DNA from: Scenedesmus sp. PABB004
Lineage: Eukaryota
Direction: 5' to 3'
DNA: 64,000 bases
Assembly: GCA_014905635.1 (NCBI GenBank)
Contig: JABVCE010000002.1
Span: 1,674,001 to 1,738,000 of the forward strand
The notes beneath the pieces were generated by a model, which saw only the letters and a list, made by a program, of their open reading frames with translations, ran no database searches and was not told where the DNA came from. A program made the position numbers and the translations under genes. The stretch's first letter is position 1. Each line of letters starts with the position of its first letter. Shown piece after piece: positions 25,284-45,010 of the stretch.

Positions 25284-26072
25284 GCGCGCTCGGCGCCGCC
25301 TGCGCTGCTCGGCGCCTGCGCCTGCGCGCCTCCCCGTGTCCTGTGGCCCGCGGGCGCTCTCCCTTTTCCGAGCCGCCGGCAGGCGGGGCTGGGCGTGGCG
25401 TGCCGCTGAGCGTGAGCGCCCCGGCTGACGCCCGCCGGCGCGGCCACGCGCCACGCCGGCCCGGGCCATCCCGTGCGCATTGGCCCGTCGAACGTCCTGC
25501 AACGATGTCACACGCGTCCGAGCGTCAAACGAGCTGCGGGCGCGCAAACCAGTGACTTCGCAGCAGAAGTGCCGCCTGCGATCTTCTGCGCACAGGCCGG
25601 CGATCTTAGCCCTGCGCACGCGCCGGCTCCCGCTCACTCTCGCCCCTGCCGTCCTGCCGTCCACCGGCCCTCCGCAGCTCTCCGCCGGCCCCGTTGGCGC
25701 ACCGCACGACCCTGCCGCCCGGTGAGCCATGTCGACAAGGCCGCACGCCCGCAGGGCGACAGGTCGCCCCGAGCCAGCGCCCGGGATGGGTGCAGGCAGT
25801 GGGGAGGGGCGCGTGGGAGGCGTCGCGGCATTGTCGGCGCGCCCAGGGCGACAGGGCAGGCTCAGATGGATGGCCAGCGGGCCCAGCGGGCCCTCACGGC
25901 GCCCGCGCCGCGCGCCGCTCTGCACGCACCGGTGCACGCATGCACCTCAGCACGCCCGCTTCTTGAAGCACATGTGCTTACACCCCGCCGCCCCCCCGCT
26001 GCCCCCGCCGCCCCCGCCGCCTGCTGCCCGCCCACCCCCGCCACGCAGGAGCTGCCGCCACTACCCGGCAAG

Positions 26073-26944
26073 ATGGCAAGCCGTGCGTTCATGTTGGCCG
26101 CCGTGGCCCTCTTCGCCGTCCTCGCGGCCGCTCGCGCGCAGCAGGGGGCCCCCCCGCGGTCTCCTGCCCCGATCACCTCCCCGTGCGACGGCAACTTCAC
26201 CGCGCTGTCCGTGGCGATGACCAACGCCACCAACACCGAGCTCGCCAAGAGCTTCGGCCAGGTCAACACCACCAGCAAGGACAGGAGCACCAAGTTCACC
26301 GTGCCCAGGATCTGCGGCCCCCTTGGCACCTGCGCCGGCGGCAACACCTTCTCGGCCTCGACGGGCAAGACCAAGACCACCAGCGGCGCGCACGACATAA
26401 CCTCCAGCTGGACTCTGACCGAGTCGTCGTGCAAAAACAAGTCAGGCACCTGGACGGTGTCTGGCCCTCTCGACGTGCTCTTCACCTGGACCGACACCAT
26501 CGTGATGGGTGAGTGCGCTGCCCAGGCCACGGGGTCGCATTGAGTTGGATCGCAGCAGCGCGTCGCGCCCCATGCCTTCCCCTTCCCCCTCACCCCCCAC
26601 CCCCCCCCTGTGCCCACCTTGCAGACACATCGATGTTCGTGGATGGCTTCCTGGGCGCCGAGCTCAGCTTGACGTTGGACACGACGATCACCGGCATGAC
26701 CGTCAACGCGGGCGGCAACTGGACGGTCACCTCGACGGATGGCGTCACCGGCACCCTTACGGCGCTGAGCTTTGCCGACTGCATCATCAACACGGTGGGC
26801 GTGGAGGTGTCCGCCAACGGCGCGGCCCTGATCACCCCTAGCGGCATAGTCCAGGGCAATCTCGATGCCTCTGGCCCCCAGTTCTGCGCCAGCCTCAACA
26901 AGAAGCTTGCCCCCAAGCTCATTAACAAGACCTTCCCCCTGTGA
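26073..26944 (+). CDS. Secreted Thr/Ser-rich glycoprotein, array copy 1 (251 aa; candidate BPI/LBP-like TULIP domain)
   Basis: Exons 26073-26508 and 26625-26944 (GT-AG, phase 1). Signal peptide MASRAFMLAAVALFAVLAAARA, six Cys, several N-x-S/T sequons, strong coding-type codon usage. Possible 5' UTR intron 25722-26048. Confidence 0.85.
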
Positions 26945-29900
26945 CAGAACCGTCTATGATGGCGGCGCCGTCGGCCGGCGCCGCGCAGCCGGGGCCCGCG
27001 CGGCGCCCGCGCACGGCCGGCGGGGCCCGGGCGCGCGGCGGCGGCGCGGGCGCGCGCGCGCGCACCGAGGCTCGTGCGCGCCGAGGCGGCGGCGGCCGCC
27101 TCCGGGCGCCGCACCCGCCCGCGCCGGCTGAGATGGTGCGGGTGGCGGCGCGCGCACTGCCGCTGGCCGGCGCCGCCGCGGCGCGCGGCGCAGCCGCAAG
27201 GCCCGGGCCGCAGCGTTTGAGCGGAGAGCGCCCGCTCTCCGTCCCAGGCCGGCGTGTGTTGTTGATATTGCCGGCCTGTGTGTTTTTGCATCACATCCGG
27301 ACCCATTGTCAAACGGTGCTGCGTGCCATCATCAGCAGCAAGCACCTGGCCTATTGCTGGCTGCATGGCCAGGGCTGGCCAGGTCTGGCCTAGCCCGGTC
27401 TGGGCCGGACATGGCACCTGTGCGCACGTTGCAGCGGTCAGGGGCTGACTGCTGGCTTGTGCGGGCTGCCTGCCTGCTTCCTATTGCTTGTCGTGATATC
27501 TATCGCGCGGCTGCCTGGGAGGCGCTGGGCGCATCTGCTTCCCCTGCGCGCGCGTCGTACGCGCATCATGTCGGTCGTTGCACCGCCGTCGCCACGCGCC
27601 CGTGGGTGCGCCACGCAGCCTACGCGCGCCTGCTCGGCGACAGCTGGAGCCTCGGCACGGTGCGCGCCGCGCCGCGCCGCGCCGCGGCGGCGTCAGCGGC
27701 GGCGCCGCGCAGCGGGCGCGGTCGTGGCTGCGCGGTCGCCCACTCGTCGCCGCCCGAGCGCGCGGCGCCGCGGCGCAGGTCCAGGCGGCCGCGTCGATGC
27801 TGATGCAGCACCTTCAGGACCGCGCGTCAATGATCGACGATGGCAGCGAGCGGGTGCTCGCACCGCGTGTCGCTGCAGATCTGGTACGGCATGCTGGGCG
27901 AGTTCACGGACCGCTGGGCGGCGGCGCCGGCGCCGGCGGCGAGTCGCGCTACGCGGACTGCAACAAGCTCGCAGCGGCGGCGCGCGCGCTGCAGCGCCCG
28001 GGCTGCGCGCGCCGGCGGCGGCGGCGGCGGCGACGCGCGCTGCAGCCGCCCGCGCTGCGCGCCGCCGGCGGCGGTGGCGGCGACACGCGCGCTGCAGCCG
28101 CCCGCGCTGCACACGCCGGCGGTGGCGGCGACGCGTGCGCTGCCCGCCTAGGCGTGCGGTGGGTGCGTGGGAGGGGGTGGTTGGCCGGCGCAGCCAGCCC
28201 TGCGGCAGCCGCTGCTAGCGTGTGCGCGCGTGTCGTAGAGCAGTGACAAACGACACCACACCGTGTGCCCCCTCCCCCCATTTTTTCTGCACTGCAATCG
28301 TAGCTTGGGCGCCGCGTCGTCGGCGGCAGGCAGGCGCCTGCCCTGCCCTCAAGCGCATGCAAGGGGCGCAGCGCGTGCGCTTCGTGCGGGCGGGGCCCAG
28401 ACTCTGGGACCTCGGGCGACGACGGTGGCATGTTATTGCTGCGCCTGCCGCAGCTGCGAGAGTCGGCTGCGGCGCGCGGGCTGGGCCGCACCGCACGAAG
28501 AGCGCGCGAGTCGGTGCCAGAGTAACACGTCCTGCTGCTCAGCTCAAGCCTAGTGATTGCCGGCTCACGGTCAAGTGCTTTCACGCGCGCGCCGCGCCCG
28601 GGTTCAGCCGCACCGCGCCGCCGCCCGCCGGCCGCGAGCTCAGCAGCGCGCGCCGCACGGCGCCCGCGCTGCAGCCCAGGAGCGCTGCCCACAGCCGCCG
28701 CCCGCGCTGCACACGCGGCCGCCGCGACGCCGCCCTCTCAAACGCGCAGGCCGGCCGGTGGTGCCCTCCTTGCGCACGTCGGGCAACATCACCCCTTGCC
28801 CTGGCGACCAGGTCCGCCCGCCCGGCTTGGCGCCGCCGCTGTAGCTGCGCGGGGGCCCGCCCGCGCACGTGAGCGCGCCCACCGCGAGCTCCTGGGGGAA
28901 GGCCGGCGGGAAGGCCAGCGCGCCGCGGCCTCGCTCGCAGGGGCGACCAGCAGCACGTCGGGCGCGCGGCCCTCGGCGGTCACGCCCGTCGCCGCCGCGC
29001 GCCACTCCGCCCCGCCCACGCGCATTGCGCCGCTGCCGATGGGCTCCGCCGGCCCGCGCTGGTCAGGCCGGCCAGCACCACCATGCGCCAGCGCGGCGCG
29101 CCGCCGGGCGCGCCGTAGTGCTCCGCCGGCAGGCCCCGCAGCCGGCCCTCGCGCACCGAGTGGGCGCGCAGCCGGCTGCGCCTGCCTGGCGCTGACGCGC
29201 CCGGCTCGATCGAGCCGCTGTCGGGGTTGACGCCCACCGCGTTGCAACGCCGCGCCGCCGGGGGTGACGCTCGCAACGCGCGGGCCCGAGCCCCGGCCGC
29301 GCCGCGATTGATGGACGCAGCGCAGGCGGCCGCGCGGCGTCGGCAAACGCGCCCAGCGCAGCACAGCGCGAGCGCGCTGGCGGCCGAGCGGGTCCGCGGT
29401 CGCGCAGCCGCTCCCCGTTGTGCAGGCGGGGCTGCTGCGCCGCGGCGTGCCGCTGCGTGAGCGCCCCGGCTGACCGGCTGACGCCGGCGCGGCCACGCGC
29501 CACGCCGGCCCGGGCCATCCCGTGCGCATTGGCCCGTCGAACGTCCTGCAACGATGTCACACGCGTCCGAGCGTCAAACGAGCTGCGGGCGCGCAAACCA
29601 GTGACTTCGCAGCAGAAGTGCCGCCTGCGATCTTCTGCGCACAGGCCGGCGATCTTAGCCCTGCGCACGCGCCGGCTCCCGCTCACTCTCGCCCCTGCCG
29701 TCCTGCCGTCCACCGGCCCTCCGCAGCTCTCCGCCGGCCCCGTTGGCGCACCGCACGACCCTGCCGCCCGGTGAGCCATGTCGACAAGGCCGCACGCCCG
29801 CAGGGCGACAGGTCGCCCCGAGCCAGCGCCCGGGATGGGTGCAGGCAGTGGGGAGGGGCGCGTGGGAGGCGTCGCGGCATTGTCGGCGCGCCCAGGGCGA

Positions 29901-30119
29901 CAGGGCAGGCTCAGATGGATGGCCAGCGGGCCCAGCGGGCCCTCACGGCGCCCGCGCCGCGCGCCGCTCTGCACGCACCGGTGCACGCATGCACCTCAGC
30001 ACGCCCGCTTCTTGAAGCACATGTGCTTACACCCCGCCGCCCCCCGCTGCCCCCGCCGCCCCGCCGCCTGCTGCCCGCCCACCCCCGCCACGCAGGAGCT
30101 GCCGCCACTACCCGGCAAG

Positions 30120-30991
30120 ATGGCAAGCCGTGCGTTCATGTTGGCCGCCGTGGCCCTCTTCGCCGTCCTCGCGGCCGCTCGCGCGCAGCAGGGGGCCCCC
30201 CGCGGTCTCCTGCCCCGATCACCTCCCCGTGCGACGGCAACTTCACCGCGCTGTCCGTGGCGATGACCAACGCCACCAACACCGAGCTCGCCAAGAGCTT
30301 CGGCCAGGTCAACACCACCAGCAAGGACAGGAGCACCAAGTTCACCGTGCCCAGGATCTGCGGCCCCCTTGGCACCTGCGCCGGCGGCAACACCTTCTCG
30401 GCCTCGACGGGCAAGACCAAGACCACCAGCGGCGCGCACGACATAACCTCCAGCTGGACTCTGACCGAGTCGTCGTGCAAAAACAAGTCAGGCACCTGGA
30501 CGGTGTCTGGCCCTCTCGACGTGCTCTTCACCTGGACCGACACCATCGTGATGGGTGAGTGCGCTGCCCAGGCCACGGGGTCGCATTGAGTTGGATCGCA
30601 GCAGCGCGTCGCGCCCCATGCCTTCCCCTTCCCCCTCACCCCCCCCCCCCCCCCCTGTGCCCACCTTGCAGACACATCGATGTTCGTGGATGGCTTCCTG
30701 GGCGCCGAGCTCAGCTTGACGTTGGACACGACGATCACCGGCATGACCGTCAACGCGGGCGGCAACTGGACGGTCACCTCGACGGATGGCGTCACCGGCA
30801 CCCTTACGGCGCTGAGCTTTGCCGACTGCATCATCAACACGGTGGGCGTGGAGGTGTCCGCCAACGGCGCGGCCCTGATCACCCCTAGCGGCATAGTCCA
30901 GGGCAATCTCGATGCCTCTGGCCCCCAGTTCTGCGCCAGCCTCAACAAGAAGCTTGCCCCCAAGCTCATTAACAAGACCTTCCCCCTGTGA
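30120..30991 (+). CDS. Array copy 2; matches copy 1 but has a -1 frameshift as assembled
   Basis: Exons 30120-30554 and 30672-30991. The tract at 30191-30201 reads G5C6 instead of G5C7. Confidence 0.75.
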
Positions 30992-31007
30992 CAGAACCGT
31001 CTATGAT

Positions 31008-34000
31008 GGCGGCGCCGTCGGCCGGCGCCGCGCAGCCGGGGCCCGCGCGGCGCCCGCGCACGGCCGGCGGGGCCCGGGCGCGCGGCGGCGGCGCGGGCGC
31101 GCGCGCGCGCACCGAGGCTCGTGCGCGCCGAGGCGGCGGCGGCCGCCTCCGGGCGCCGCACCCGCCCGCGCCGGCTGAGATGGTGCGGGTGGCGGCGCGC
31201 GCACTGCCGCTGGCCGGCGCCGCCGCGGCGCGCGGCGCAGCCGCAAGGCCCGGGCCGCAGCGTTTGAGCGGAGAGCGCCCGCTCTCCGTCCCAGGCCGGC
31301 GTGTGTTGTTGATATTGCCGGCCTGTGTGTTTTTGCATCACATCCGGACCCATTGTCAAACGGTGCTGCGTGCCATCATCAGCAGCAAGCACCTGGCCTA
31401 TTGCTGGCTGCATGGCCAGGGCTGGCCAGGTCTGGCCTAGCCCGGTCTGGGCCGGACATGGCACCTGTGCGCACGTTGCAGCGGTCAGGGGCTGACTGCT
31501 GGCTTGTGCGGGCTGCCTGCCTGCTTCCTATTGCTTGTCGTGATATCTATCGCGCGGCTGCCTGGGAGGCGCTGGGCGCATCTGCTTCCCCTGCGCGCGC
31601 GTCGTACGCGCATCATGTCGGTCGTTGCACCGCCGTCGCCACGCGCCCGTGGGTGCGCCACGCAGCCTACGCGCGCCTGCTCGGCGACAGCTGGAGCCTC
31701 GGCACGGTGCGCGCCGCGCCGCGCCGCGCCGCGGCGGCGTCAGCGGCGGCGCCGCGCAGCGGGCGCGGTCGTGGCTGCGCGGTCGCCCACTCGTCGCCGC
31801 CCGAGCGCGCGGCGCCGCGGCGCAGGTCCAGGCGGCCGCGTCGATGCTGATGCAGCACCTTCAGGACCGCGCGTCAATGATCGACGATGGCAGCGAGCGG
31901 GTGCTCGCACCGCGTGTCGCTGCAGATCTGGTACGGCATGCTGGGCGAGTTCACGGACCGCTGGGCGGCGGCGCCGGCGCCGGCGGCGAGTCGCGCTACG
32001 CGGACTGCAACAAGCTCGCAGCGGCGGCGCGCGCGCTGCAGCGCCCGGGCTGCGCGCGCCGGCGGCGGCGGCGGCGGCGACGCGCGCTGCAGCCGCCCGC
32101 GCTGCGCGCCGCCGGCGGCGGTGGCGGCGACACGCGCGCTGCAGCCGCCCGCGCTGCACACGCCGGCGGTGGCGGCGACGCGTGCGCTGCCCGCCTAGGC
32201 GTGCGGTGGGTGCGTGGGAGGGGGTGGTTGGCCGGCGCAGCCAGCCCTGCGGCAGCCGCTGCTAGCGTGTGCGCGCGTGTCGTAGAGCAGTGACAAACGA
32301 CACCACACCGTGTGCCCCCTCCCCCCATTTTTTCTGCACTGCAATCGTAGCTTGGGCGCCGCGTCGTCGGCGGCAGGCAGGCGCCTGCCCTGCCCTCAAG
32401 CGCATGCAAGGGGCGCAGCGCGTGCGCTTCGTGCGGGCGGGGCCCAGACTCTGGGACCTCGGGCGACGACGGTGGCATGTTATTGCTGCGCCTGCCGCAG
32501 CTGCGAGAGTCGGCTGCGGCGCGCGGGCTGGGCCGCACCGCACGAAGAGCGCGCGAGTCGGTGCCAGAGTAACACGTCCTGCTGCTCAGCTCAAGCCTAG
32601 TGATTGCCGGCTCACGGTCAAGTGCTTTCACGCGCGCGCCGCGCCCGGGTTCAGCCGCACCGCGCCGCCGCCCGCCGGCCGCGAGCTCAGCAGCGCGCGC
32701 CGCACGGCGCCCGCGCTGCAGCCCAGGAGCGCTGCCCACAGCCGCCGCCCGCGCTGCACACGCGGCCGCCGCGACGCCGCCCTCTCAAACGCGCAGGCCG
32801 GCCGGTGGTGCCCTCCTTGCGCACGTCGGGCAACATCACCCCTTGCCCTGGCGACCAGGTCCGCCCGCCCGGCTTGGCGCCGCCGCTGTAGCTGCGCGGG
32901 GGCCCGCCCGCGCACGTGAGCGCGCCCACCGCGAGCTCCTGGGGGAAGGCCGGCGGGAAGGCCAGCGCGCCGCGGCCTCGCTCGCAGGGGCGACCAGCAG
33001 CACGTCGGGCGCGCGGCCCTCGGCGGTCACGCCCGTCGCCGCCGCGCGCCACTCCGCCCCGCCCACGCGCATTGCGCCGCTGCCGATGGGCTCCGCCGGC
33101 CCGCGCTGGTCAGGCCGGCCAGCACCACCATGCGCCAGCGCGGCGCGCCGCCGGGCGCGCCGTAGTGCTCCGCCGGCAGGCCCCGCAGCCGGCCCTCGCG
33201 CACCGAGTGGGCGCGCAGCCGGCTGCGCCTGCCTGGCGCTGACGCGCCCGGCTCGATCGAGCCGCTGTCGGGGTTGACGCCCACCGCGTGCAGCGCCGCG
33301 CCGCCGGGGGTGACGCTCGCAACGCGCGGGCCCAGCCCCGGCCGCGCCGCGATGATGGACGCAGCGCAGGTGCCGCGCGGCTTCAACAAACGAGCCCAGC
33401 TCAGCACACAGCCGCTGGGGCCGAGCGGGTCCGCGGTCGCGCAGCCGCTCCAGGCGTTGTGCACCAGGTTGGGGCTGCTCGCCGCGACGCCGCTGCTGAT
33501 CAGGCACACCAGCACCACCAGCACGCGCGGCGCGGACGCCGGCAGACCGATCGTGGGCTCGCCGATCGCGGCCAGGGCCCACGGCCAGCCGTCCGGCGCC
33601 GCCGCGCACGCCGCGCCCGTCACGGCGGCGCTGCTGGCGTTGCCGCCGCCGCTGCCGCCTTCGCCGCCCGGCGCGGGCGAGGCGGCGCGTGGCAGCTGGC
33701 TGGCCTGCGGCGGGCGGCAGGACGTGAGCGCGAGGTGCGCGTGCGGCGTCGGCGGCCAGAGCAGGCGCCAGGATGCCAGGATGCTTCTACTGAAGTGGCC
33801 ACCGCGCGCTGGCCAGCAGCACCAGCAGCCACAGGCAGGGCACGCCGGCAGCGCCGTGCTGCATTGACCGGGTGTGTTCTGGCGAGGCTCCTGTGCTGCC
33901 GCTGTCGCAGTTGCGGGTCCCCCTGCTCCTCTCCACGCACACGCTGCGGCCCGGGCCTCTCGGCTGCGCCGCGCGCCGCGGCGGCGCCGGCCTGCGGCCG

Positions 34001-34052
34001 TGCGCGGGCGCCGCGCGGGCCTGGCTGCGCGGCGTCGGCCGACGGCGCCGCC
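31008..34052. mobile_element. About 3 kb inverted-repeat-bounded spacer, candidate non-autonomous foldback/Pack-type element (unit 2)
   Basis: The right arm 33929-34052 is the reverse complement of the left arm 31008-31275 apart from a ~140 bp internal gap. No target-site duplication or transposase seen. Confidence 0.4.
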
Positions 34053-34818
34053 GCGCTCGCTTTCGGAGCCGCTGGCGGCTCCGTGTCCTGTGGCCCGCGG
34101 GCGCTCTCCCTTTTCCGAGCCGCCGGCAGGCGGGGCTGGGCGTGGCGTGCCGCTGAGCGTGAGCGCCCCGGCTGACGCCCGCCGGCGCGGCCACGCGCCA
34201 CGCCGGCCCGGGCCATCCCGTGCGCATTGGCCCGTCGAACGTCCTGCAACGATGTCACACGCGTCCGAGCGTCAAACGAGCTGCGGGCGCGCAAACCAGT
34301 GACTTCGCAGCAGAAGTGCCGCCTGCGATCTTCTGCGCACAGGCCGGCGATCTTAGCCCTGCGCACGCGCCGGCTCCCGCTCACTCTCGCCCCTGCCGTC
34401 CTGCCGTCCACCGGCCCTCCGCAGCTCTCCGCCGGCCCCGTTGGCGCACCGCACGACCCTGCCGCCCGGTGAGCCATGTCGACAAGGCCGCACGCCCGCA
34501 GGGCGACAGGTCGCCCCGAGCCAGCGCCCGGGATGGGTGCAGGCAGTGGGGAGGGGCGCGTGGGAGGCGTCGCGGCATTGTCGGCGCGCCCAGGGCGACA
34601 GGGCAGGCTCAGATGGATGGCCAGCGGGCCCAGCGGGCCCTCACGGCGCCCGCGCCGCGCGCCGCTCTGCACGCACCGGTGCACGCATGCACCTCAGCAC
34701 GCCCGCTTCTTGAAGCACATGTGCTTACACCCCGCCGCCCCCCGCTGCCCCCGCCGCCCCCGCCGCCTGCTGCCCGCCCACCCCCGCCACGCAGGAGCTG
34801 CCGCCACTACCCGGCAAG

Positions 34819-35691
34819 ATGGCAAGCCGTGCGTTCATGTTGGCCGCCGTGGCCCTCTTCGCCGTCCTCGCGGCCGCTCGCGCGCAGCAGGGGCCCCCCC
34901 GCGGTCTCCTGCCCCGATCACCTCCCCGTGCGACGGCAACTTCACCGCGCTGTCCGTGGCGATGACCAACGCCACCAACACCGAGCTCGCCAAGAGCTTC
35001 GGCCAGGTCAACACCACCAGCAAGGACAGGAGCACCAAGTTCACCGTGCCCAGGATCTGCGGCCCCCTTGGCACCTGCGCCGGCGGCAACACCTTCTCGG
35101 CCTCGACGGGCAAGACCAAGACCACCAGCGGCGCGCACGACATAACCTCCAGCTGGACTCTGACCGAGTCGTCGTGCAAAAACAAGTCAGGCACCTGGAC
35201 GGTGTCTGGCCCTCTCGACGTGCTCTTCACCTGGACCGACACCATCGTGATGGGTGAGTGCGCTGCCCAGGCCACGGGGTCGCATTGAGTTGGATCGCAG
35301 CAGCGCGTCGCGCCCCATGCCTTCCCCTTCCCCCTCACCCCCCACCCCCCCCCCCTGTGCCCACCTTGCAGACACATCGATGTTCGTGGATGGCTTCCTG
35401 GGCGCCGAGCTCAGCTTGACGTTGGACACGACGATCACCGGCATGACCGTCAACGCGGGCGGCAACTGGACGGTCACCTCGACGGATGGCGTCACCGGCA
35501 CCCTTACGGCGCTGAGCTTTGCCGACTGCATCATCAACACGGTGGGCGTGGAGGTGTCCGCCAACGGCGCGGCCCTGATCACCCCTAGCGGCATAGTCCA
35601 GGGCAATCTCGATGCCTCTGGCCCCCAGTTCTGCGCCAGCCTCAACAAGAAGCTTGCCCCCAAGCTCATTAACAAGACCTTCCCCCTGTGA
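34819..35691 (+). CDS. Array copy 3; matches copy 1 but has a -1 frameshift as assembled
   Basis: Exons 34819-35253 and 35372-35691. The tract at 34890-34900 reads G4C7 instead of G5C7. Confidence 0.75.
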
Positions 35692-35707
35692 CAGAACCGT
35701 CTATGAT

Positions 35708-38700
35708 GGCGGCGCCGTCGGCCGGCGCCGCGCAGCCGGGCCCGCGCGGCGCCCGCGCACGGCCGGCGGGGCCCGCGCGGCGCCCGCGCACGGCCGGCGG
35801 GGCCCGGGCGCGCGGCGGCGGCGCGGGCGCGCGCGCGCGCACCGAGGCTCGTGCGCGCCGAGGCGGCGGCGGCCGCCTCCGGGCGCCGCACCCGCCCGCG
35901 CCGGCTGAGATGGTGCGGGTGGCGGCGCGCGCACTGCCGCTGGCCGGCGCCGCCGCGGCGCGCGGCGCAGCCGCAAGGCCCGGGCCGCAGCGTTTGAGCG
36001 GAGAGCGCCCGCTCTCCGTCCCAGGCCGGCGTGTGTTGTTGATATTGCCGGCCTGTGTGTTTTTGCATCACATCCGGACCCATTGTCAAACGGTGCTGCG
36101 TGCCATCATCAGCAGCAAGCACCTGGCCTATTGCTGGCTGCATGGCCAGGGCTGGCCAGGTCTGGCCTAGCCCGGTCTGGGCCGGACATGGCACCTGTGC
36201 GCACGTTGCAGCGGTCAGGGGCTGACTGCTGGCTTGTGCGGGCTGCCTGCCTGCTTCCTATTGCTTGTCGTGATATCTATCGCGCGGCTGCCTGGGAGGC
36301 GCTGGGCGCATCTGCTTCCCCTGCGCGCGCGTCGTACGCGCATCATGTCGGTCGTTGCACCGCCGTCGCCACGCGCCCGTGGGTGCGCCACGCAGCCTAC
36401 GCGCGCCTGCTCGGCGACAGCTGGAGCCTCGGCACGGTGCGCGCCGCGCCGCGCCGCGCCGCGGCGGCGTCAGCGGCGGCGCCGCGCAGCGGGCGCGGTC
36501 GTGGCTGCGCGGTCGCCCACTCGTCGCCGCCCGAGCGCGCGGCGCCGCGGCGCAGGTCCAGGCGGCCGCGTCGATGCTGATGCAGCACCTTCAGGACCGC
36601 GCGTCAATGATCGACGATGGCAGCGAGCGGGTGCTCGCACCGCGTGTCGCTGCAGATCTGGTACGGCATGCTGGGCGAGTTCACGGACCGCTGGGCGGCG
36701 GCGCCGGCGCCGGCGGCGAGTCGCGCTACGCGGACTGCAACAAGCTCGCAGCGGCGGCGCGCGCGCTGCAGCGCCCGGGCTGCGCGCGCCGGCGGCGGCG
36801 GCGGCGGCGACGCGCGCTGCAGCCGCCCGCGCTGCGCGCCGCCGGCGGCGGTGGCGGCGACACGCGCGCTGCAGCCGCCCGCGCTGCACACGCCGGCGGT
36901 GGCGGCGACGCGTGCGCTGCCCGCCTAGGCGTGCGGTGGGTGCGTGGGAGGGGGTGGTTGGCCGGCGCAGCCAGCCCTGCGGCAGCCGCTGCTAGCGTGT
37001 GCGCGCGTGTCGTAGAGCAGTGACAAACGACACCACACCGTGTGCCCCCTCCCCCCATTTTTTCTGCACTGCAATCGTAGCTTGGGCGCCGCGTCGTCGG
37101 CGGCAGGCAGGCGCCTGCCCTGCCCTCAAGCGCATGCAAGGGGCGCAGCGCGTGCGCTTCGTGCGGGCGGGGCCCAGACTCTGGGACCTCGGGCGACGAC
37201 GGTGGCATGTTATTGCTGCGCCTGCCGCAGCTGCGAGAGTCGGCTGCGGCGCGCGGGCTGGGCCGCACCGCACGAAGAGCGCGCGAGTCGGTGCCAGAGT
37301 AACACGTCCTGCTGCTCAGCTCAAGCCTAGTGATTGCCGGCTCACGGTCAAGTGCTTTCACGCGCGCGCCGCGCCCGGGTTCAGCCGCACCGCGCCGCCG
37401 CCCGCCGGCCGCGAGCTCAGCAGCGCGCGCCGCACGGCGCCCGCGCTGCAGCCCAGGAGCGCTGCCCACAGCCGCCGCCCGCGCTGCACACGCGGCCGCC
37501 GCGACGCCGCCCTCTCAAACGCGCAGGCCGGCCGGTGGTGCCCTCCTTGCGCACGTCGGGCAACATCACCCCTTGCCCTGGCGACCAGGTCCGCCCGCCC
37601 GGCTTGGCGCCGCCGCTGTAGCTGCGCGGGGGCCCGCCCGCGCACGTGAGCGCGCCCACCGCGAGCTCCTGGGGGAAGGCCGGCGGGAAGGCCAGCGCGC
37701 CGCGGCCTCGCTCGCAGGGGCGACCAGCAGCACGTCTGGCGCGCGGCCCTCGGCGGTCACGCCCGTCGCCGCCGCGCGCCACTCCGCCCCGCCCACGCGC
37801 ATTGCGCCGCTGCCGATGGGCTCCGCCGGCCCGCGCTGGTCAGGCCGGCCAGCACCACCATGCGCCAGCGCGGCGCGCCGCCGGGCGCGCCGTAGTGCTC
37901 CGCCGGCAGGCCCCGCAGCCGGCCCTCGCGCACCGAGTGGGCGCGCAGCCGGCTGCGCCTGCCTGGCGCTGACGCGCCCGGCTCGATCGAGCCGCTGTCG
38001 GGGTTGACGCCCACCGCGTGCAGCGCCGCGCCGCCGGGGGTGACGCTCGCAACGCGCGGGCCCAGCCCCGGCCGCGCCGCGATGATGGACGCAGCGCAGG
38101 TGCCGCGCGGCTTCAACAAACGAGCCCAGCTCAGCACACAGCCGCTGGGGCCGAGCGGGTCCGCGGTCGCGCAGCCGCTCCAGGCGTTGTGCACCAGGTT
38201 GGGGCTGCTCGCCGCGACGCCGCTGCTGATCAGGCACACCAGCACCACCAGCACGCGCGGCGCGGACGCCGGCAGACCGATCGTGGGCTCGCCGATCGCG
38301 GCCAGGGCCCACGGCCAGCCGTCCGGCGCCGCCGCGCACGCCGCGCCCGTCACGGCGGCGCTGCTGGCGTTGCCGCCGCCGCTGCCGCCTTCGCCGCCCG
38401 GCGCGGGCGAGGCGGCGCGTGGCAGCTGGCTGGCCTGCGGCGGGCGGCAGGACGTGAGCGCGAGGTGCGCGTGCGGCGTCGGCGGCCAGAGCAGGCGCCA
38501 GGATGCCAGGATGCTTCTACTGAAGTGGCCACCGCGCGCTGGCCAGCAGCACCAGCAGCCACAGGCAGGGCACGCCGGCAGCGCCGTGCTGCATTGACCG
38601 GGTGTGTTCTGGCGAGGCTCCTGTGCTGCCGCTGTCGCAGTTGCGGGTCCCCCTGCTCCTCTCCACGCACACGCTGCGGCCCGGGCCTCTCGGCTGCGCC

Positions 38701-38782
38701 GCGCGCCGCGGCGGCGCCGGCCTGCGGCCGTGCGCGGGCGCCGCGCGGGCCTGGCTGCGCGGCGTCGGCCGACGGCGCCGCC
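35708..38782. mobile_element. Inverted-repeat-bounded spacer (unit 3)
   Basis: Left arm 35708-36005, right arm 38659-38782; same structure as unit 2. Confidence 0.4.
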
Positions 38783-39522
38783 GCGCTCGCTTTCGGAGCC
38801 GCTGGCGCAGGCCGGCAGCTTCCTCTGAACTAGCGGCGGGTGAATCACGTGTGAGGCGGAGCCAGGGCACCAGGTGACGCACGCGAGCTGACGTCCACCG
38901 GCGCGGCCACGCGCGGCCACGGTCTGGGTGCTTTCGCTTTCGAATCGCCCTGGTAAGACGTCACACGCGTCCGACCGCCGAAGCGAGCTCAGAGCGCGCG
39001 CACAGGTCACTTCACAGCAGAAGTGCCGACCAAGAGCTTCTCCTTTGCACGGCCGCGATCTTAGCCCTGCGCACGCGCCGGCTCCCGCTCACTCTCGCCC
39101 CTGCCGTTTCGCCGTCCTCCGGCCCTCCGCAGCTCTCCGCCGGCCCCGTTCGCGCACCGACCCTGCCGCCCGGTGAGCCATGTCGACAAGGCCGCACGCC
39201 CGCAGGGCGACAGGTCGCCCCGAGCCAGCGCCCGGGATGGGTGCAGGCAGTGGGGAGGGGGCGCGTGGGAGGCGTCGCGGCATTGTCGGCGCGCGCAGGG
39301 CGGCAGGGCAGGCTCAGATGGATGGCCAGCGGGCCCACGCCTCACGGCGCTCGCGCCGCGCACCGCTCTGCACGCACCGGTGCACAGCATGCACCTCAGC
39401 ACGCCCGCTTCTTGAAGCACATGTGCTTACACCCCGCCGCCCCCCCGCTGCCCCCGCCGCCCCCGCCGCCTGCTGCCCGCCCAACCCCCGCCACGCAGGA
39501 GCTGCCGCCACCACCCGGCAAG

Positions 39523-40381
39523 ATGGCAAGCCGTGCGTTCATGTTGGCCGCCGTGGCCCTCTTCGCCGTCCTCGCGGCCGCTCGCGCGCAGCAGGGGGCC
39601 CCCCCGCGGTCTCCTGCCCCGATCACCACCCCGTGCGACGGCAACTTCACCGCGCTGTCCGTGGCGATGACCAACGCCACCAACACCGAGCTCGCCAAGA
39701 GCTTTGGCCAGACCAACACCACCAGCACGGACAGGAGCACCAAGTTCACCGTGCCCAGGATCTGCGGCCCCCTTGGCACCTGCGCCGGCGGCAACACCTT
39801 CTCGGCCTCGGCGGGCAAGACCAAGAGCACCAGCGGCGCGCACAACATCGTCTCCGCCTGGAACCTGACCGAGAACTCGTGCTTTAACAACTCTGGCACC
39901 TGGACGGTGTCTGGCCCTCTCCAGGTGGTCTTCACTTGGACCGACAGCATCAGCGTCAGTGAGTGCGCTGGGGGGTCGCATTGAGTTGGATCGCAGCAGG
40001 CACGCGCCCCATGGCTCCCCCTCACCCCTCACCCCCCCCCCCCCCCCTGCCCACCCTGCAGACACAAAGTTTTTCGTCAATGGCTTCCTGGGCGCCGAGC
40101 TCAGCTTTACGGTGGACGCATCGATCACCGGCATGACCGCCCTCTCGGGCGGCACCTGGACGGTCACCTCGACGGATGGCATCACCGGCACCCTTACGGC
40201 GGTGAGCTTTGCCAACTGCGTCATCGACACCGCCTCCGTGGACGTCACGGCGGACGGGTCGTTCCTGGCAAGCGCTAGCGCCACGGTCCAGGCCAATCTC
40301 GATGCCTCTGGCCCCCAGTTCTGCTCCGCTCTCAACAAGAAGCTTGCCCCCAAGCTCATTAACAAGACCTTCCCCCTGTGA
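39523..40381 (+). CDS. Array copy 4; intact, diverged paralog
   Basis: Exons 39523-39958 and 40062-40381. Same signal peptide and six Cys, with many substitutions in the mature region. Confidence 0.85.
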
Positions 40382-41054
40382 CAGCACCGTCTATGATGGC
40401 GGCGCCGTCGGCCGGCGCCGCGCAGCCGGGGCCCGCGCGGCGCCCGCGCATGGCCGGCAGGCCCGCGCGGCGCCCGCGCACGGCCGGCGGGGCCGGGCGC
40501 GCGGCGGCGGCGCGGGCGCGCGCGCGCGCACCGGGGTGCGCGCGCGCGTGCGCCCCGAGGCGCGTGCGCGCCGAGGCGGCGGCGGCCGCCTCCGGGCGCC
40601 GCGTCCGCCCCCGCCGGCTGAGATGGTGCGGATGGCGGCGCGCGCACTGCCGCTGGCCGGCGCTGGCGCGGCGCGCGGCGCAGCCGCACCTTGCCCGCGC
40701 CGCAGCGTGTGCGCGGGGAGCGCGGCCCGCTCTCCGTCCCAGGCCGGCGTGTGTTGTTGATGTTGCCGGCCTGTGTGTTTCTGCATCACATCCGGACCCA
40801 TTGTCAAACGGTGCTGCGTGACATGTGACAGCAGCAAGCACCTGACCTATCGTGTCCTGGCTGCATGGCCAGCGCTGGCCACGCGCTGCAGCGGTTAGGG
40901 GCTGACCGCTGCTGGCTTGTACGGGCTGCCTGCTTCCTATTGCTTGTCGTGATATCTATCGCGCAGCTGCCTGGGAGGCGCTGGGCGCATCTGCTTCCCC
41001 TGCGCGCGCGTCGTACGCGCATCATGTCGGTCGTTGCACCGCCGTCGCCACGCG

Positions 41055-41450
41055 CCCGTGGGTGCGCCACGCAGCCTACGCGCGCCTGCTCGGCGACAGC
41101 TGGAGCCTCGGCACGGTGCGCGCCGCGCCGCGCCGCGCCGCGGCGGCGTCAGCGGCGGCGCCGCGCAGCGGGCGCGGTCGTGGCTGCGCGGTCGCCCACT
41201 CGTCGCCGCCCGAGCGCGCGGCGCCGCGGCGCAGGTCCAGGCGGCCGCGTCGATGCTGATGCAGCACCTTCAGGACCGCGCGTCGATGATCGACGACGGC
41301 AGCGAGCACCCGCACCGCATGTCGCTGCAGATCTGGTACGGCGTGCTGGGCGAGGTCACGGACCGCTCGGCGGCGGGCCTGGCAGAGGCGGGCGCGGCGG
41401 CGCAGGTCTCTGCTCCATCGGCGGCGAGTGGCGTTACGCCGACTGTGACA
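41055..41450 (+). pseudogene. Spliced gene relic in the spacer (other copies at about 27600-27960, 31650-32010, 36380-36740)
   Basis: YARLLGDSWSLGT|gtgcgc...cgcag|VQAAASMLMQHLQDRASMIDDGSEHPHRMSLQIWYGVLGEVTDR. The intron is typical. Units 1-3 are frameshifted after DDGSE. No clear start codon. Confidence 0.45.
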
Positions 41451-42284
41451 AGCTCGCCGCGGCGGCGCAGCGCGCCGCCGCAGCCGCGGCGACGCGCGCG
41501 CTGCAGCCGCCCCGGCTGCGCGCCGCCGGCGGCGGTGGCGGCGAAGCGTGCGCTGCCCGCCTAGGCGTGCGGTGGGTGTGCGTGGGAGGGGGTGGTTGGC
41601 CGGCGCAGCCAGCCCTGCGGCAGCCGCTGCTGGCGTGTGCGCGCGTGTCGTAGAGCAGTGACAAAAGACACCACACCGTGTGCCCCCTCCCCCCATTTTT
41701 TCTGCACTGCAATCGTAGCTTGGGCGCCGCGTCGTCGGCGGCAGGCAGGCGCCTGCCCTGCCCTCAAGCGCATGCAAGGGGCGCAGCGCGTGCGCTTCGT
41801 GCGGGCGGGGCCCAGACTCTGGGACCTCGGGCGACGACGGTGGCATGTTATTGCTGCGCCTGCCGCAGCTGCGAGAGTCGGCTGCGGCGCGCGGGCTGGG
41901 CCGCACCGCACGAAGAGCGCGCGAGTCGGTGCCAGAGTAACACGTCCTGCTGCTCAGCTCAAGCCTAGTGATTGCCGGCTCACTGTCAAGTGCTTTCACG
42001 CGCGCGCCGCGCCCAGGTTCAGCCGCACCGTGCCGCCGCCCGCCGGCCGCAAGCTCAGCAGCGCGCACCGCACGGCGCCCGCGCTGCAGCCCGGGAACGC
42101 TGCCCACAGCCGCCGCCCGCGCTGCACACGCGGCCGCCGCAACGCCGCCCTCCCACACGCGCAGGCCGGCCGGTGGTGCCCTCCTTGCGCACGTCAGGCA
42201 CCAGCACCCCTTCCCCCCGCCACCAGGTCGGCCCGCCCGGCTTGGCACCACCGCTGTAGCTGCGCGGGGGCCCGCCCGCGCATG

Positions 42285-43090
42285 TGAGCGCGCCCACCGC
42301 GAGCTCCTGGGGGAAGGCCGGCGGGAAGGCCAGCGCGCCGCGGCCTCGCTCGCAGGGGCGACCAGCAGCACGTCTGGCGCGCGGCCCTCGGCGGTCACGC
42401 CCGTCGCCGCCGCGCGCCACTCCGCCCCGCCCACGCCCATCGCGCCGCTGCCGATGGGCTCCGCCGGCCCCGCGCTGGTCAGGCCGGCCAGCACCACCAT
42501 GCGCCAGCGCGGCGCGCCGCCGGACGCGCCGCAGTGCTCCGCCTGCAGGCCCCGCAGCCGGCCCTCGCACACCGAGTGGGCGCGCAGCCGGCTGCGCCCG
42601 CCTGGCGCTGACGCGCCCGGCTTGATCGAGCCGCTGTCGGGGTTGACGCCCACCGCGTGCAGCGCCGCGCCGCCGGGGGTGACGCTCGCAACGCGCGGGC
42701 CCAGCCCCGGCCGCGCCGCGATGATGGACGCAGCGCAGGTGCCGCGCGGCTTCAACAAACGAGCCCAGCTCAGCACACAGCCGCTGGGGCCGAGCGGGTC
42801 CGCGGTCGCGCAGCCGCTCCAGGCGTTGTGCACCAGGTTGGGGCTGCTCGCCGCGACGCCGCTGCTGATCAGGCACACCAGCACCACCAGCACGCGCGGC
42901 GCGGACGCCGGCAGACCGATCGTGGGCTCGCCGATCGCGGCCAGGGCCCACGGCCAGCCGTCCGGCGCCGCCGCGCACGCCGCGCCCGTCACGGCGGCGC
43001 TGCTGGCGTTGCCGCCGCCGCTGCCGCCTTCGCCGCCCGGCGCGGGCGAGGCGGCGCGTGGCAGCTGGCTGGCCTGCGGCGGCGGGACGT
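42285..43090 (-). pseudogene. Minus-strand gene relic in the spacer (other copies at about 32920-33720 and 37650-38450; truncated at about 28870-29430)
   Basis: Protein-like reading PDGWPWALAAIGEPTIGLP..VLVVLVCLISSGVAASSPNLVHNAWSGC..WRMVVLAGL. The frame is continuous in unit 4 and shifted in units 1-3. No family recognised. Confidence 0.35.
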
Positions 43091-44150
43091 GAGCGCGAGG
43101 TGCGCATGCGGCGTCGGCGGCCAGAGCAGGCGCCATGATGCTTCTACTGAAGTGGCCACCGCGCGCCGGCCAGCAGCGCCAGCCACAGGCAGGGCACGCC
43201 GGCAGCGCCGCGCCGCATTGACCGGGTGTGCCTGGCCTCCTGCTGCCGCTGTCGCAGTTGCGGGTCCCCCTGCTCCCTCTCCACGCACACGTTGCGGCCC
43301 GGCCTTTCGGCTGCGCCGCGCGCCGCGGCGGCGCCGGCCAGCGCCGCTGGCCGTGCGCGGGCGCCGCGCGGGCCTGGCTGCGCGGCGCCGGCCGACGGCG
43401 CCGCCGCGCTCGCTTTCGGAGCCGCTGGCGCAGGCCGGCAGCTTCCTCTGAACTAGCGGCGGGTGAATCACGTGTGAGGCGGAGCCAGGGCACCAGGTGA
43501 CGCACGCGAGCTGACGTCCACCGGCGCGGCCACGCGCGGCCGCGGTCTGGGCGCGGTCGCTTTCCAGTCGATCGTCTTAGACGTCACACGCGTCCGACCG
43601 CCGAAGCGAGCCCCGAGCGCGGGCACAGGTCACTTCACAGTAGAAGTGCCGACCAAGAGCTTCTCCTTTGCACCGCCGCGATCTTAGCCCTGCGCACGCG
43701 CCGGCTCCCGCTCACTCCCGCCCCTGTCTTCCCGCCGTCTACCGTACCTCGGCAGCTCTCCGCCGCCTCGCCGCCGCACCACACAACCCTGCCCCGAGAG
43801 GTGAGCCATGTCGACAAGGCCGCACGCCCGCAGGGCGACAGGTCGCCCCGAGCCAGCGCCCGGGATGGGTGCAGGCAGTGGGGTGCAGGCAGTGGGGAGG
43901 GGCGCGTGGGAGGCGTCGCGGCATTGTCCGCGCGCCCAGGGCGGGGCTCAGATGGATGCAGAGCCGGCCCACGCCTCACGGCGCCCGCGCCGCGCACTTC
44001 TGCTCGCACCGGTGCACGCATGCACCTCAGCACGCCCGCTTCTTGAAGCACATGTGCTTACACCCCGCCGCCCCCGCTGCCCCCGCCGCCCCCGCCGCCT
44101 GCTGCCCGCCCACCCCCGCCACGCAGGAGCTGCCGCCACCACCCGGCAAG

Positions 44151-45010
44151 ATGGCAAGCCGTGCGTTCATGTTGGCCGCCGTGGCCCTCTTCGCCGTCCT
44201 CGCGGCCGCTCGCGCGCAGCAGGACGACGGGGTCCGGCCCTCCCCCTCCCCCATCACCAACCCGTGCGACGGCAACTTCACCGCGCTGTCCGCGGCGATG
44301 ACCAACGCCACCAACACCCAGCTCGCCAAGAGCTTCGGCCAGACCAACACCTCCAGCACGGACAGGAGCACCACGTTCACCGTGCCCAGGATCTGCGGCC
44401 CCTTTGGCACCTGCGCCGGCGGCAAAACCTACTCGGCCTCGGCGGGCAAGACCAAGAGCACCAGCGGCGCGCACGACATCGTCTCCGCCTGGACTCTGAC
44501 CGAGGACCAGTGCTTTAACAACTCTGGCACCTGGACGGTGTCTGGCACTCTCCAGGTGGTCTTCACTTGGACCGACAGCATCAGCGTCAGTGAGTGCGCT
44601 GGGGGGTCGCATTGAGTTGGATCGCAGCAGGCACGCGCCCCATGGCTCCCCCTCACCCCTCACACCCCCCAACCCCTGCCCACCCTGCAGACACAAAGTT
44701 TTTCGTCAATGGCTTCCTGGGCGTCAGCCTTGACTTCACGGTGGACGCATCGATCACCGGCATGACCGCCACCGCGGGCGGCACCTGGACGGTCACCTCG
44801 ACGAACGGCATCGTCGGCACGCTTACGGCGATCAGCTTTGCCGACTGCGTCATCGACACGAACTCCGTGGACATCACGCTGCAGGGCTCGCCCCTGTCCA
44901 GTGCTAGCGCCAAGGCCCAGTCCAAGATCGATGCCTCTGGTCCCCAATTCTGCACCGCCCTCAACAACAAGGTCGCCCCCAAGCTCATTAACAAGACCTT
45001 CCCCCTGTGA
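44151..45010 (+). CDS. Array copy 5; intact, most diverged paralog
   Basis: Exons 44151-44589 and 44691-45010. The mature protein starts QQDDGVRPSPSP and the six Cys are conserved. TGTAA occurs downstream at 45662 and 45703. Confidence 0.85.

Follow-up and report, generated by a model that had tools for sequence, protein, structure and literature searches.

Layout of the array

A stretch of 64,000 nucleotides (nt) from the genome of the microalga Scenedesmus sp. PABB004 (GenBank assembly GCA_014905635.1, contig JABVCE010000002.1, positions 1,674,001 to 1,738,000 of the forward strand), here called the window, carries a tandem array of five genes that belong to one family. Each would encode a small secreted protein whose predicted fold is that of the TULIP superfamily, which includes BPI, the PLUNC proteins, JHBP, and the group 7 mite allergens. 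The best explanation of the array, to which we assign a probability of roughly 0.7, is that its products are secreted, disulfide-stapled single TULIP domains that carry or present a hydrophobic ligand.

Direct-repeat analysis resolves five direct units of 4.0 to 4.7 kb with start-to-start spacings of 4046, 4699, 4705, and 4631 bases, and a tblastn search of the window yields these five family copies only. Each unit is one gene, made up of a noncoding leader exon and two coding exons. The start codons of copies 1 to 5 lie at 26073, 30120, 34819, 39523, and 44151. An initial annotation, made by a model from the sequence alone, had described a five-gene array spanning 26073 to 45010; the copy number holds, and the span coincides exactly with the first ATG and the end of the last stop codon. 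Within each gene, a GTGAGT donor sits about 436 bases past the ATG, and the acceptor (CAG, followed by ACAC) lies 101 to 118 bases beyond it. The coding introns are of the GT..AG type and measure 116, 117, 118, 103, and 101 nt in copies 1 to 5, mostly not a multiple of three, with a poly-C run of varying length accounting for the differences. Spliced products of 251, 251, and 252 amino acids (aa) result for copies 1, 4, and 5, respectively, and copy 4 shares 202 of 251 residues with copy 1. The features, all on the forward strand, are as follows.

25722 to 26048, forward strand: putative leader intron of copy 1, in the 5' untranslated region (5'-UTR); the five copies all share its conserved donor motif, GGTGAGCCATGTCGAC
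26073 to 26508, forward strand: copy 1 coding exon 1, with the ATG at 26073, the signal peptide, and Cys 1 to 4; donor GTGAGT at 26509
26509 to 26624, forward strand: copy 1 coding intron, 116 nt, GT..AG, with a poly-C run
26625 to 26944, forward strand: copy 1 coding exon 2, with Cys 5 and 6, the C-terminal helices, and the stop codon
30120 to 30991, forward strand: copy 2 (exon 1, 30120-30554; intron, 30555-30671; exon 2, 30672-30991), frame broken as assembled
34819 to 35691, forward strand: copy 3 (exon 1, 34819-35253; intron, 35254-35371; exon 2, 35372-35691), frame broken as assembled
39523 to 40381, forward strand: copy 4 (exon 1, 39523-39958; intron, 39959-40061; exon 2, 40062-40381), intact, 251 aa
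43801 to 44126, forward strand: leader intron of copy 5 in the 5'-UTR, GT..AG, 326 nt, with RNA evidence of its splicing
44151 to 44589, forward strand: copy 5 coding exon 1, from the spliced translation and RNA contigs of run X5
44590 to 44690, forward strand: copy 5 coding intron, 101 nt
44691 to 45010, forward strand: copy 5 coding exon 2, with the stop codon ending at 45010; product of 252 aa

Why are two of the copies broken? Directly after the signal peptide, copies 1 and 4 carry a G5C7 run (26144-26155 in copy 1). Copy 2 has G5C6 at about 30191-30201 and copy 3 has G4C7 at about 34890-34900, each one base short. As assembled, the frames of these two copies stop after 48 codons; they otherwise match copy 1, and the exon 2 translation of copy 2 is identical to that of copy 1. 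The expectation of a product of about 251 aa from every copy is thus borne out for copies 1, 4, and 5 and fails, as assembled, for copies 2 and 3. Because two different one-base losses hit a single homopolymer pair in units that do not differ elsewhere, the frame breaks look like homopolymer sequencing errors, the alternative being real slippage and hence pseudogenes. The variable poly-C run in the coding intron likewise suggests that homopolymers are unstable here or were miscalled in the assembly. The G5C7 tract is also the point at which copy 5 begins to diverge from the others, and it separates the uniform from the variable module described below.

Transcription and splicing

Contigs of four public runs, aligned to copy 5, provide the RNA and DNA evidence, the run shares being small (0.05 to 0.19). 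From a metatranscriptome (X5) comes a 151-nt contig that aligns to 44125-44227 with no mismatch and extends a further 48 letters upstream, 30 of which were compared and match 43769-43798 exactly. Together with the GT at 43801 and the AG at 44125-44126, this contig defines the 326-nt leader intron and the noncoding first exon. The X5 RNA contigs are 100% identical to copy 5 over 44125-44227 and 44416-44566. The leader-intron acceptor, CACGCAG followed by GAGCTGCC, is identical in all five copies, with RNA proof at copy 5 only.

The coding intron is also removed in RNA. A 439-nt contig from an oligo-dT RNA-seq run (X8) follows exon 1 as far as its last 16 bases, for which it has a diverged version, and resumes exactly at 44691, the first base of exon 2. 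With 27 differences over 419 aligned bases, this contig derives from a close relative or paralogue. Two DNA runs (X1 and X2) contain exact 151-mers that include intron sequence, and a protein from the public gene models, P0007, starts with the spliced product of copy 5. Gene structure, splicing, and transcription are matters of direct observation, as are the membership of all five copies in one family and the paired occurrence of the Cys described below.

Features of the encoded proteins

The N terminus, MASRAFMLAAVALFAVLAAARA followed by QQ, resembles a signal peptide by inspection, and what follows in copy 5 is a single domain of 230 residues, referred to here as mature copy 5. It contains five sequons and is about neutral in charge (K+R, 13; D+E, 14). 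Thr makes up 17% and Ser 11.5% of the chain, 28.5% together, and Leu makes up 5.5%. Six Cys residues are invariant in copies 1, 4, and 5. The signal peptide, the six invariant Cys, and the presence of several sequons had each been proposed in the initial annotation, and all three are recovered here. Judging from these features of the sequence, the proteins are probably secreted and glycosylated.

How might the six Cys be paired? Their co-occurrence across the family offers a clear pattern. Of the 32 rows that span Cys177 and Cys212, 30 carry the two residues together, 2 lack the pair, and none has one alone. Cys60 and Cys66 are present together in 13 rows and replaced together in 15 (6 clusters), again with no row keeping just one, and every complete sequence with either Cys17 or Cys99 has both. 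This co-occurrence argues for disulfides 17-99, 60-66, and 177-212, bonds that the family alignment makes probable. In two relatives, P0023 and P0026, the last disulfide is exchanged for Cys at other positions.

Sequence relatives and annotation

Sequence searches return few relatives. Word-indexed searches of 5.8 billion proteins found only P0001 to P0004, and a third such search for homologues, based on a 15-row alignment, contributed next to nothing. At an expectation value (E) of ≤0.001, an exhaustive profile scan of 1.84 billion representatives yielded 25 proteins. One of these, P0006 (7048 aa, 64 stretches), is a repeat protein without the family motifs and was rejected as a false positive. 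Two others, P0005 (2050 aa) and P0007 (685 aa), map to the window itself at 97-100%. The full-length relatives (P0008, P0012, P0013, P0015, P0017 to P0019, P0021 to P0023, and P0026) are 21-49% identical to P0001 and, where named by their source, are hypothetical proteins. Some carry Pro-rich stretches, namely, PPRAPPSPRPP at the N terminus of P0012 and SPSPRPPPSPRG-like tails in P0023 and P0026.

How has the locus been annotated? P0005 is a mis-merged gene model that joins the upstream methyltransferase to copies 1 to 4 and pieces of spacer (e.g., 27620-28051), and P0007 joins copy 5 to the downstream zf-4CXXC_R1 gene, the mis-merged locus running from 23477 to 49531. The family is invisible in annotation because public gene models fuse the copies with each other and with their neighbors. 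The methyltransferase gene lies directly upstream of the array, and the genes flanking the array encode eukaryotic nuclear domains, including Hus1, BAG, DnaJ, ankyrin, RING, protein kinase, zf-CCCH, and zf-4CXXC_R1. The window is extremely GC rich (0.70-0.835 in 2-kb steps).

Among Pfam families, the relevant signal is PF01273, the family of the BPI/LBP N-terminal domain. Matches always fall on the C-terminal half of this profile and are all below the gathering cut-off of 28.8 bits. The best relative, P0016, reaches 22.7 bits (E, 8.6e-5; profile positions 82-164 of 168), followed by P0015 (E, 0.1) and P0028 (E, 0.16). The initial annotation had drawn a parallel between a part of the array protein and segments of BPI, and the subthreshold matches of the relatives fall on that same segment. 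Formal membership in PF01273 is not supported, since no copy or relative reaches the cut-off. The allergen and JHBP families, PF16984 and PF06585, are absent at E of ≤1 to 10 in every hmmscan of copies and relatives.

Another candidate was LmeA/DUF2993 (PF11209), a TULIP family reported in cyanobacteria and algal picoplankton (PMC6791001). It resembles the array family in size, in having a signal sequence, and in its occurrence in cyanobacteria and algae. Nevertheless, there is no detectable relation: the 35-row family alignment, compared by hhalign with 11 LmeA proteins drawn from the genome family to which a marine Synechococcus belongs, gave a probability of 0.1% over 11 aligned columns, and hmmscan gave no match to PF11209. 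Kinship with LmeA was therefore rejected. We read the array proteins as a new, unnamed family inside the known TULIP superfamily.

Predicted fold

What fold would these proteins adopt? The 35-row alignment, headed by mature copy 5 (residues 17-246 of P0007), gave an AlphaFold2 model with a predicted local distance difference test score (pLDDT) of 86.8 and a predicted template modeling score of 0.75; the five models ranged from 82.3 to 86.8. The model consists of a helix (22-37), strands between 43 and 188, and two further helices (194-205 and 208-223), the same order of a helix, long strands, and a helix that had initially been read from the DNA. TULIP domains are described as a helix, a long curved antiparallel sheet, and a C-terminal helix packed in its concave face (PMC5507252), and the predicted model has this architecture. 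Its six strands at 105-188 are amphipathic, one face being 67-100% hydrophobic.

The predicted structure also places the last pair of Cys. According to the same source, a disulfide joins the fifth and sixth elements of the BPI N-terminal domain (Wong & Levine 2017; PMC5507252). In the model, the strand at 166-180, the last of the long ones, holds Cys177, and the C-terminal helix (208-223) holds Cys212, so that a bond between them, if it forms as the co-occurrence suggests, would tie these two elements together, as in BPI.

Structural comparison, which had been proposed as the way to check the initial annotation, was run on the model of mature copy 5. All seven Foldseek matches in the Protein Data Bank (PDB) with E of ≤0.001 are TULIPs (Der p 7 or Der f 7, BPI, and LBP), and Takeout, SPLUNC1, CETP, JHBP, and beta-carotene-binding protein come next. 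A second look with VIA-align returned TULIPs in all of rows 1 to 19, among them Der p 7 (Z score, 9.0), SPLUNC1 (Z, 8.4; root mean square deviation [rmsd], 4.2 Å over 154 residues), and BPI, whose residues 11-191 align with a Z of 8.3. In an unbiased VIA-align scan of 48,161 representative chains, the four chains at Z of ≥8 are all TULIPs, as are 13 of the first 14 rows; the TULIP rows include latherin, BSP30b, the SMP domain of E-Syt2, and Mdm12-Mmm1. The nearest neighbors of P0001 and copy 5 by language-model features in the ESM Atlas are Grp7_allergen, JHBP, and latherin-like clusters (0.87-0.92). Because the structural scores are moderate, we place weight on the uniformity of the matches and on the agreement of independent lines.

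The TULIP fold of the array proteins is thus predicted with good support. The proposal of a secreted single-domain TULIP of the BPI/PLUNC/JHBP/group 7 allergen kind is supported by the model, by Foldseek and VIA-align, by the PF01273 matches, and by the language-model neighbors. No confident non-TULIP fold emerged, and no other known family claimed the protein. The adjacency of the last two Cys, on which the initial annotation had also staked the fold, is supported by their shared presence or loss across the family and by their places in the last long strand and the C-terminal helix. As for assembly into larger forms, a homodimer prediction of mature copy 5 gave a median score of 0.16 against a mark of 0.32, from a run with the alignment unused and no controls, and speaks neither for nor against a dimer.

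Comparison with known TULIP systems

Which of the known TULIPs do the array proteins most resemble? By several measures, it is the mite allergens Der p 7 and Der f 7 (PF16984; PDB entries 3H4Z, 3UV1, and 9HAE), which are likewise secreted single-domain TULIPs of about 200 aa. They provide the best Foldseek match (E, 5.3e-5), the best VIA-align score, and the top language-model neighbors. The differences are that identity in the structural alignments is 7-10%, with an rmsd of 6-11 Å, that hmmscan finds no match to PF16984, and that the three-disulfide pattern is the array family's own.

The single-domain members of PF01273, SPLUNC1 (BPIFA1), latherin, and BSP30b, are also secreted, and SPLUNC1 gives the tightest superposition of all the matches (rmsd, 3.9-4.2 Å over 151-154 residues). 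Proteins of this group are Leu rich. The array family, in contrast, is rich in Thr and Ser, has two further disulfides, scores below the cut-off for PF01273, and comes from a GC-rich microbial eukaryote and from prokaryote-like metagenome contigs. In mammals, genes of the SPLUNC/PLUNC type are also reported to be tandemly duplicated and fast evolving (PMC3253384).

With the BPI/LBP N-terminal domain (PDB entries 1BP1, 1EWF, and 4M4D), the array proteins share the alignment to BPI 11-191, the coverage of that aligned segment by weak PF01273 matches, and the putative disulfide from the last long strand to the C-terminal helix. BPI proper is a two-domain boomerang with a strongly cationic N-terminal domain. 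The array protein does not fit this description: it has one domain rather than two, is not cationic, and contains no detected PF02886. Takeout, JHBP, and beta-carotene-binding protein (PF06585; PDB entries 3E8T, 2RCK, and 9INK) are secreted single-domain proteins too, and the known ones carry small hydrophobic molecules. They align with Z of 7.6-8.8 over 160-170 residues, and JHBP clusters are among the language-model neighbors. Unlike the array family, they are arthropod families, they have another Cys pattern, and hmmscan gives no match to PF06585.

What has been described in algae? Full-length two-domain homologues of the BPI/CETP type, longer than 450 aa, are the only algal and plant kind mentioned in the available part of PMC5507252. 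Our literature search, covering titles and the openings of abstracts, turned up no report of secreted TULIPs with a single domain from green algae.

Divergence among the copies

The five units have not diverged evenly. Units 1 to 3 are about 100% identical over 4 kb, apart from homopolymer bases. Unit 4 is a recombinant, because its gene body is near that of unit 5 and its spacer is like those of units 1 to 3. The comparison of copies 1 and 4 illustrates the resulting mosaic: the window just upstream of the ATG is 99% identical, that containing the signal peptide is 97% identical, and most 200-column windows of the spacer are 92-100% identical (one is at 85%), against 83-85% for the mature coding part. 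Over its 72 nt, the signal peptide is unchanged in every pair of copies, and the synonymous divergence (dS) of the mature part is 0.11-0.15. About 200 bases before each ATG (25930-26144 and equivalents) are 99-100% identical in all five units, the diverged unit 5 included, and this uniform module suggests either common regulation or conversion that still continues. At 4047 bases, unit 1 falls about 650 short of units 2 to 4 (4699, 4704, and 4628); it lacks a block immediately before the leader region of the next unit (about 29340-29420, compared with 33400-34120 and 38100-38820).

Where do the proteins differ? Of the positions in the helix at 191-206, 11 of 16 are variable, compared with 2 of 24 in helix 1 and 4 of 24 in the last helix. 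In the strands at 105-188, 20 of 36 positions vary on the polar outer face and 10 of 35 on the hydrophobic face. Nei-Gojobori estimates of the ratio of nonsynonymous to synonymous divergence (dN/dS) in the mature part are 1.28 for copies 1 and 4, 1.47 for copies 1 and 5, and 0.87 for copies 4 and 5, nominal values that are inflated by an extreme codon bias and GC content at third codon positions. As evidence that the family is diversifying, these ratios are suggestive only. The pattern of variation fits diversifying selection on the exposed end of the protein, and it fits recombination or gene conversion that keeps the flanks and the leader module alike while leaving the gene body to differ.

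Relatives on marine metagenome contigs

The commonest distant clusters, P0022 (39 members) and P0019 (10 members), come from marine metagenomes, including Tara. On two such contigs, L001 (952-2733) and L002 (4795-5901), the genes form an intronless tandem pair, 33 bases apart, and the paired members are 29% identical to each other. The methyltransferase that neighbors the pair on L001 is 82-98% identical to genes of marine Synechococcus genomes, and on L002, RmuC and a VapE-like gene lie beside the pair. Probably, then, the tandem pair sits on a rare island of picocyanobacteria.

Searches for the host were blank. The family was not found in four Synechococcus genomes that share the methyltransferase of L001, nor in 301 sampled genomes of the Synechococcus family and 401 of the phylum, and these searches had no positive control, so that the blanks show little. 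The same holds for scans of viral contigs and of genome contigs with P0022, which gave no match and likewise lacked a positive control.

Proposed mechanism

How might such a protein work? Each unit would give rise to a small secreted glycoprotein with a cleavable signal peptide, five to six N-glycosylation sequons, and three disulfides. Its one TULIP domain would begin with a helix, continue as a long, curved antiparallel sheet, and end in two helices that occupy the concave face of the sheet; as in the BPI N-terminal domain, one disulfide would staple the C-terminal helix to the last long strand. Between the hydrophobic sheet face and the helices, there may be a pocket that takes up an extracellular lipid or another hydrophobic compound, and the bound molecule would be carried or presented, as in PLUNC/BPIFA, Takeout/JHBP, Der p 7, and beta-carotene-binding protein. 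The array itself may have arisen by recent tandem duplication and recombination, which would have kept the leader and signal peptide module uniform and let the mature part differ, above all at one end of the domain (residues about 178-206). The differences among the copies point to a range of targets or ligands. By analogy, ligand binding is the likeliest mechanism, and we lean toward it by a small margin; it and any ecological role are inferred. Killing by a cationic membrane attack of the BPI type is unlikely, because the mature protein is about neutral.

Points against and competing explanations

A number of observations weigh against a ligand-carrying TULIP. (i) Pfam offers little: the six exon translations give nothing above threshold, mature copy 5 scanned whole has no match at E of ≤10, and the best Pfam match of the window is copy 5 exon 2 to PF01273, at 12.0 bits (E, 0.17) against the cut-off of 28.8. 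(ii) Sequence searches of the PDB with the copy 1 exons, a 9-row profile (A1), a C-terminal profile (A5), and P0016 found no TULIP, returning chance-level rows only (rhizavidin and ephrin receptor). (iii) The good model rests on 35 rows, a run with 9 rows having been unusable (pLDDT, 37.4). (iv) The Foldseek matches have template modeling (TM) scores of 0.26-0.41 and an rmsd of 11-13 Å, and the best VIA-align Z of 9.0 is to be read against best values of 7-8 that are typical of models without a true match. (v) The porin CarO (Z, 7.2) stands among the TULIP rows of the 48,161-chain scan. (vi) The Atlas recognition value for P0001, 1982, is below the mark of 2300, which makes the language-model neighbors weak evidence. 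(vii) Strands 43-55 and 71-83 have almost no hydrophobic residues on either face; with these polar first two long strands and the high content of Thr and Ser, a large lipid tube is not assured. (viii) On the evolutionary side, the limits on dN/dS given above apply, and the mosaic identity pattern can arise from recombination alone.

Could the proteins instead serve in defense? They might be recognition or antimicrobial factors of the BPI/PLUNC kind that bind bacterial lipids, such as lipopolysaccharide or lipoproteins, with the array diversifying under microbial pressure. The fold and the BPI-type disulfide would suit this role, as would the contrast between a signal peptide that does not vary and a mature part that does, with dN/dS above 1 for copy 1 against copies 4 and 5 and changes that are commoner on the polar outer face of the strands and cluster in the helix at 191-206. 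However, mature copy 5 is not cationic, unlike the BPI N-terminal domain, the dN/dS values above 1 are suggestive only, and with three of the five units identical, the effective diversity is three sequences. We regard defense as unlikely, if deserving of attention.

A structural or surface-active role is a poorer prospect, and we consider it very unlikely. Here, the Thr/Ser-rich, glycosylated sheet would be a wall or matrix component, an adhesin, or a latherin-like surfactant without a specific ligand pocket. The composition and the two strands that are polar on both faces agree with such a role, latherin is among the fold matches (Z, 6.3), and the relatives P0023, P0026, and P0012 have Pro-rich tails such as SPSPRPPPSP. 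The copies in the window, however, lack a Pro-rich tail for wall anchoring; the six strands at 105-188 have a clearly hydrophobic inner face, as expected of a pocket or core; and the array protein has a Leu content of 5.5%, whereas latherin is Leu rich.

The slimmest chance belongs to a wrong fold call, an overconfident model from a shallow alignment that hides another beta-rich fold, e.g., a small barrel: besides the few rows, the failed 9-row run, and TM scores of ≤0.41, the barrels CarO and OmpW reach Z of 5.9-7.2, and a poor Atlas ESMFold model (pLDDT, 0.53) also matches barrel and autotransporter clusters, but four independent kinds of evidence (Pfam profile, language-model features, Foldseek 3Di, and rigid-body alignment) lead to TULIP, the disulfide pattern agrees with a helix packed on a sheet, and membrane barrels lack two long terminal helices and would be unexpected in a secreted eukaryotic disulfide protein.

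Implications

The secreted, ligand-carrying TULIP domain remains our preferred reading of the array. A bolder version, which we hold to be rather improbable, is an extracellular lipid-recognition system of a free-living microalga: a set of BPI-like single TULIPs with a common leader and signal module, whose exposed end diversifies toward the lipids of different bacteria, in a family shared by descent or transfer with the island-borne gene pair of marine picocyanobacteria. If true, this would extend innate-immunity-like roles of the TULIP fold beyond animals and plants. The prokaryote-like marine relatives also bear on how eukaryotic and bacterial TULIPs connect.

Extracellular single-domain TULIPs are known and studied in animals, as PLUNC/BPIF proteins, Takeout/JHBP, and mite allergens. 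The array adds a family of compact, transcribed single-domain proteins, stapled by disulfides, that goes unnamed in Pfam and has very few relatives, the 25 matches among 1.84 billion representatives including its own two mis-merged gene models and one false positive. If lipid binding proves true, the array would offer a simple system for the role of a secreted TULIP in a unicellular phototroph, and one in which to test whether tandem diversification tracks microbial partners.

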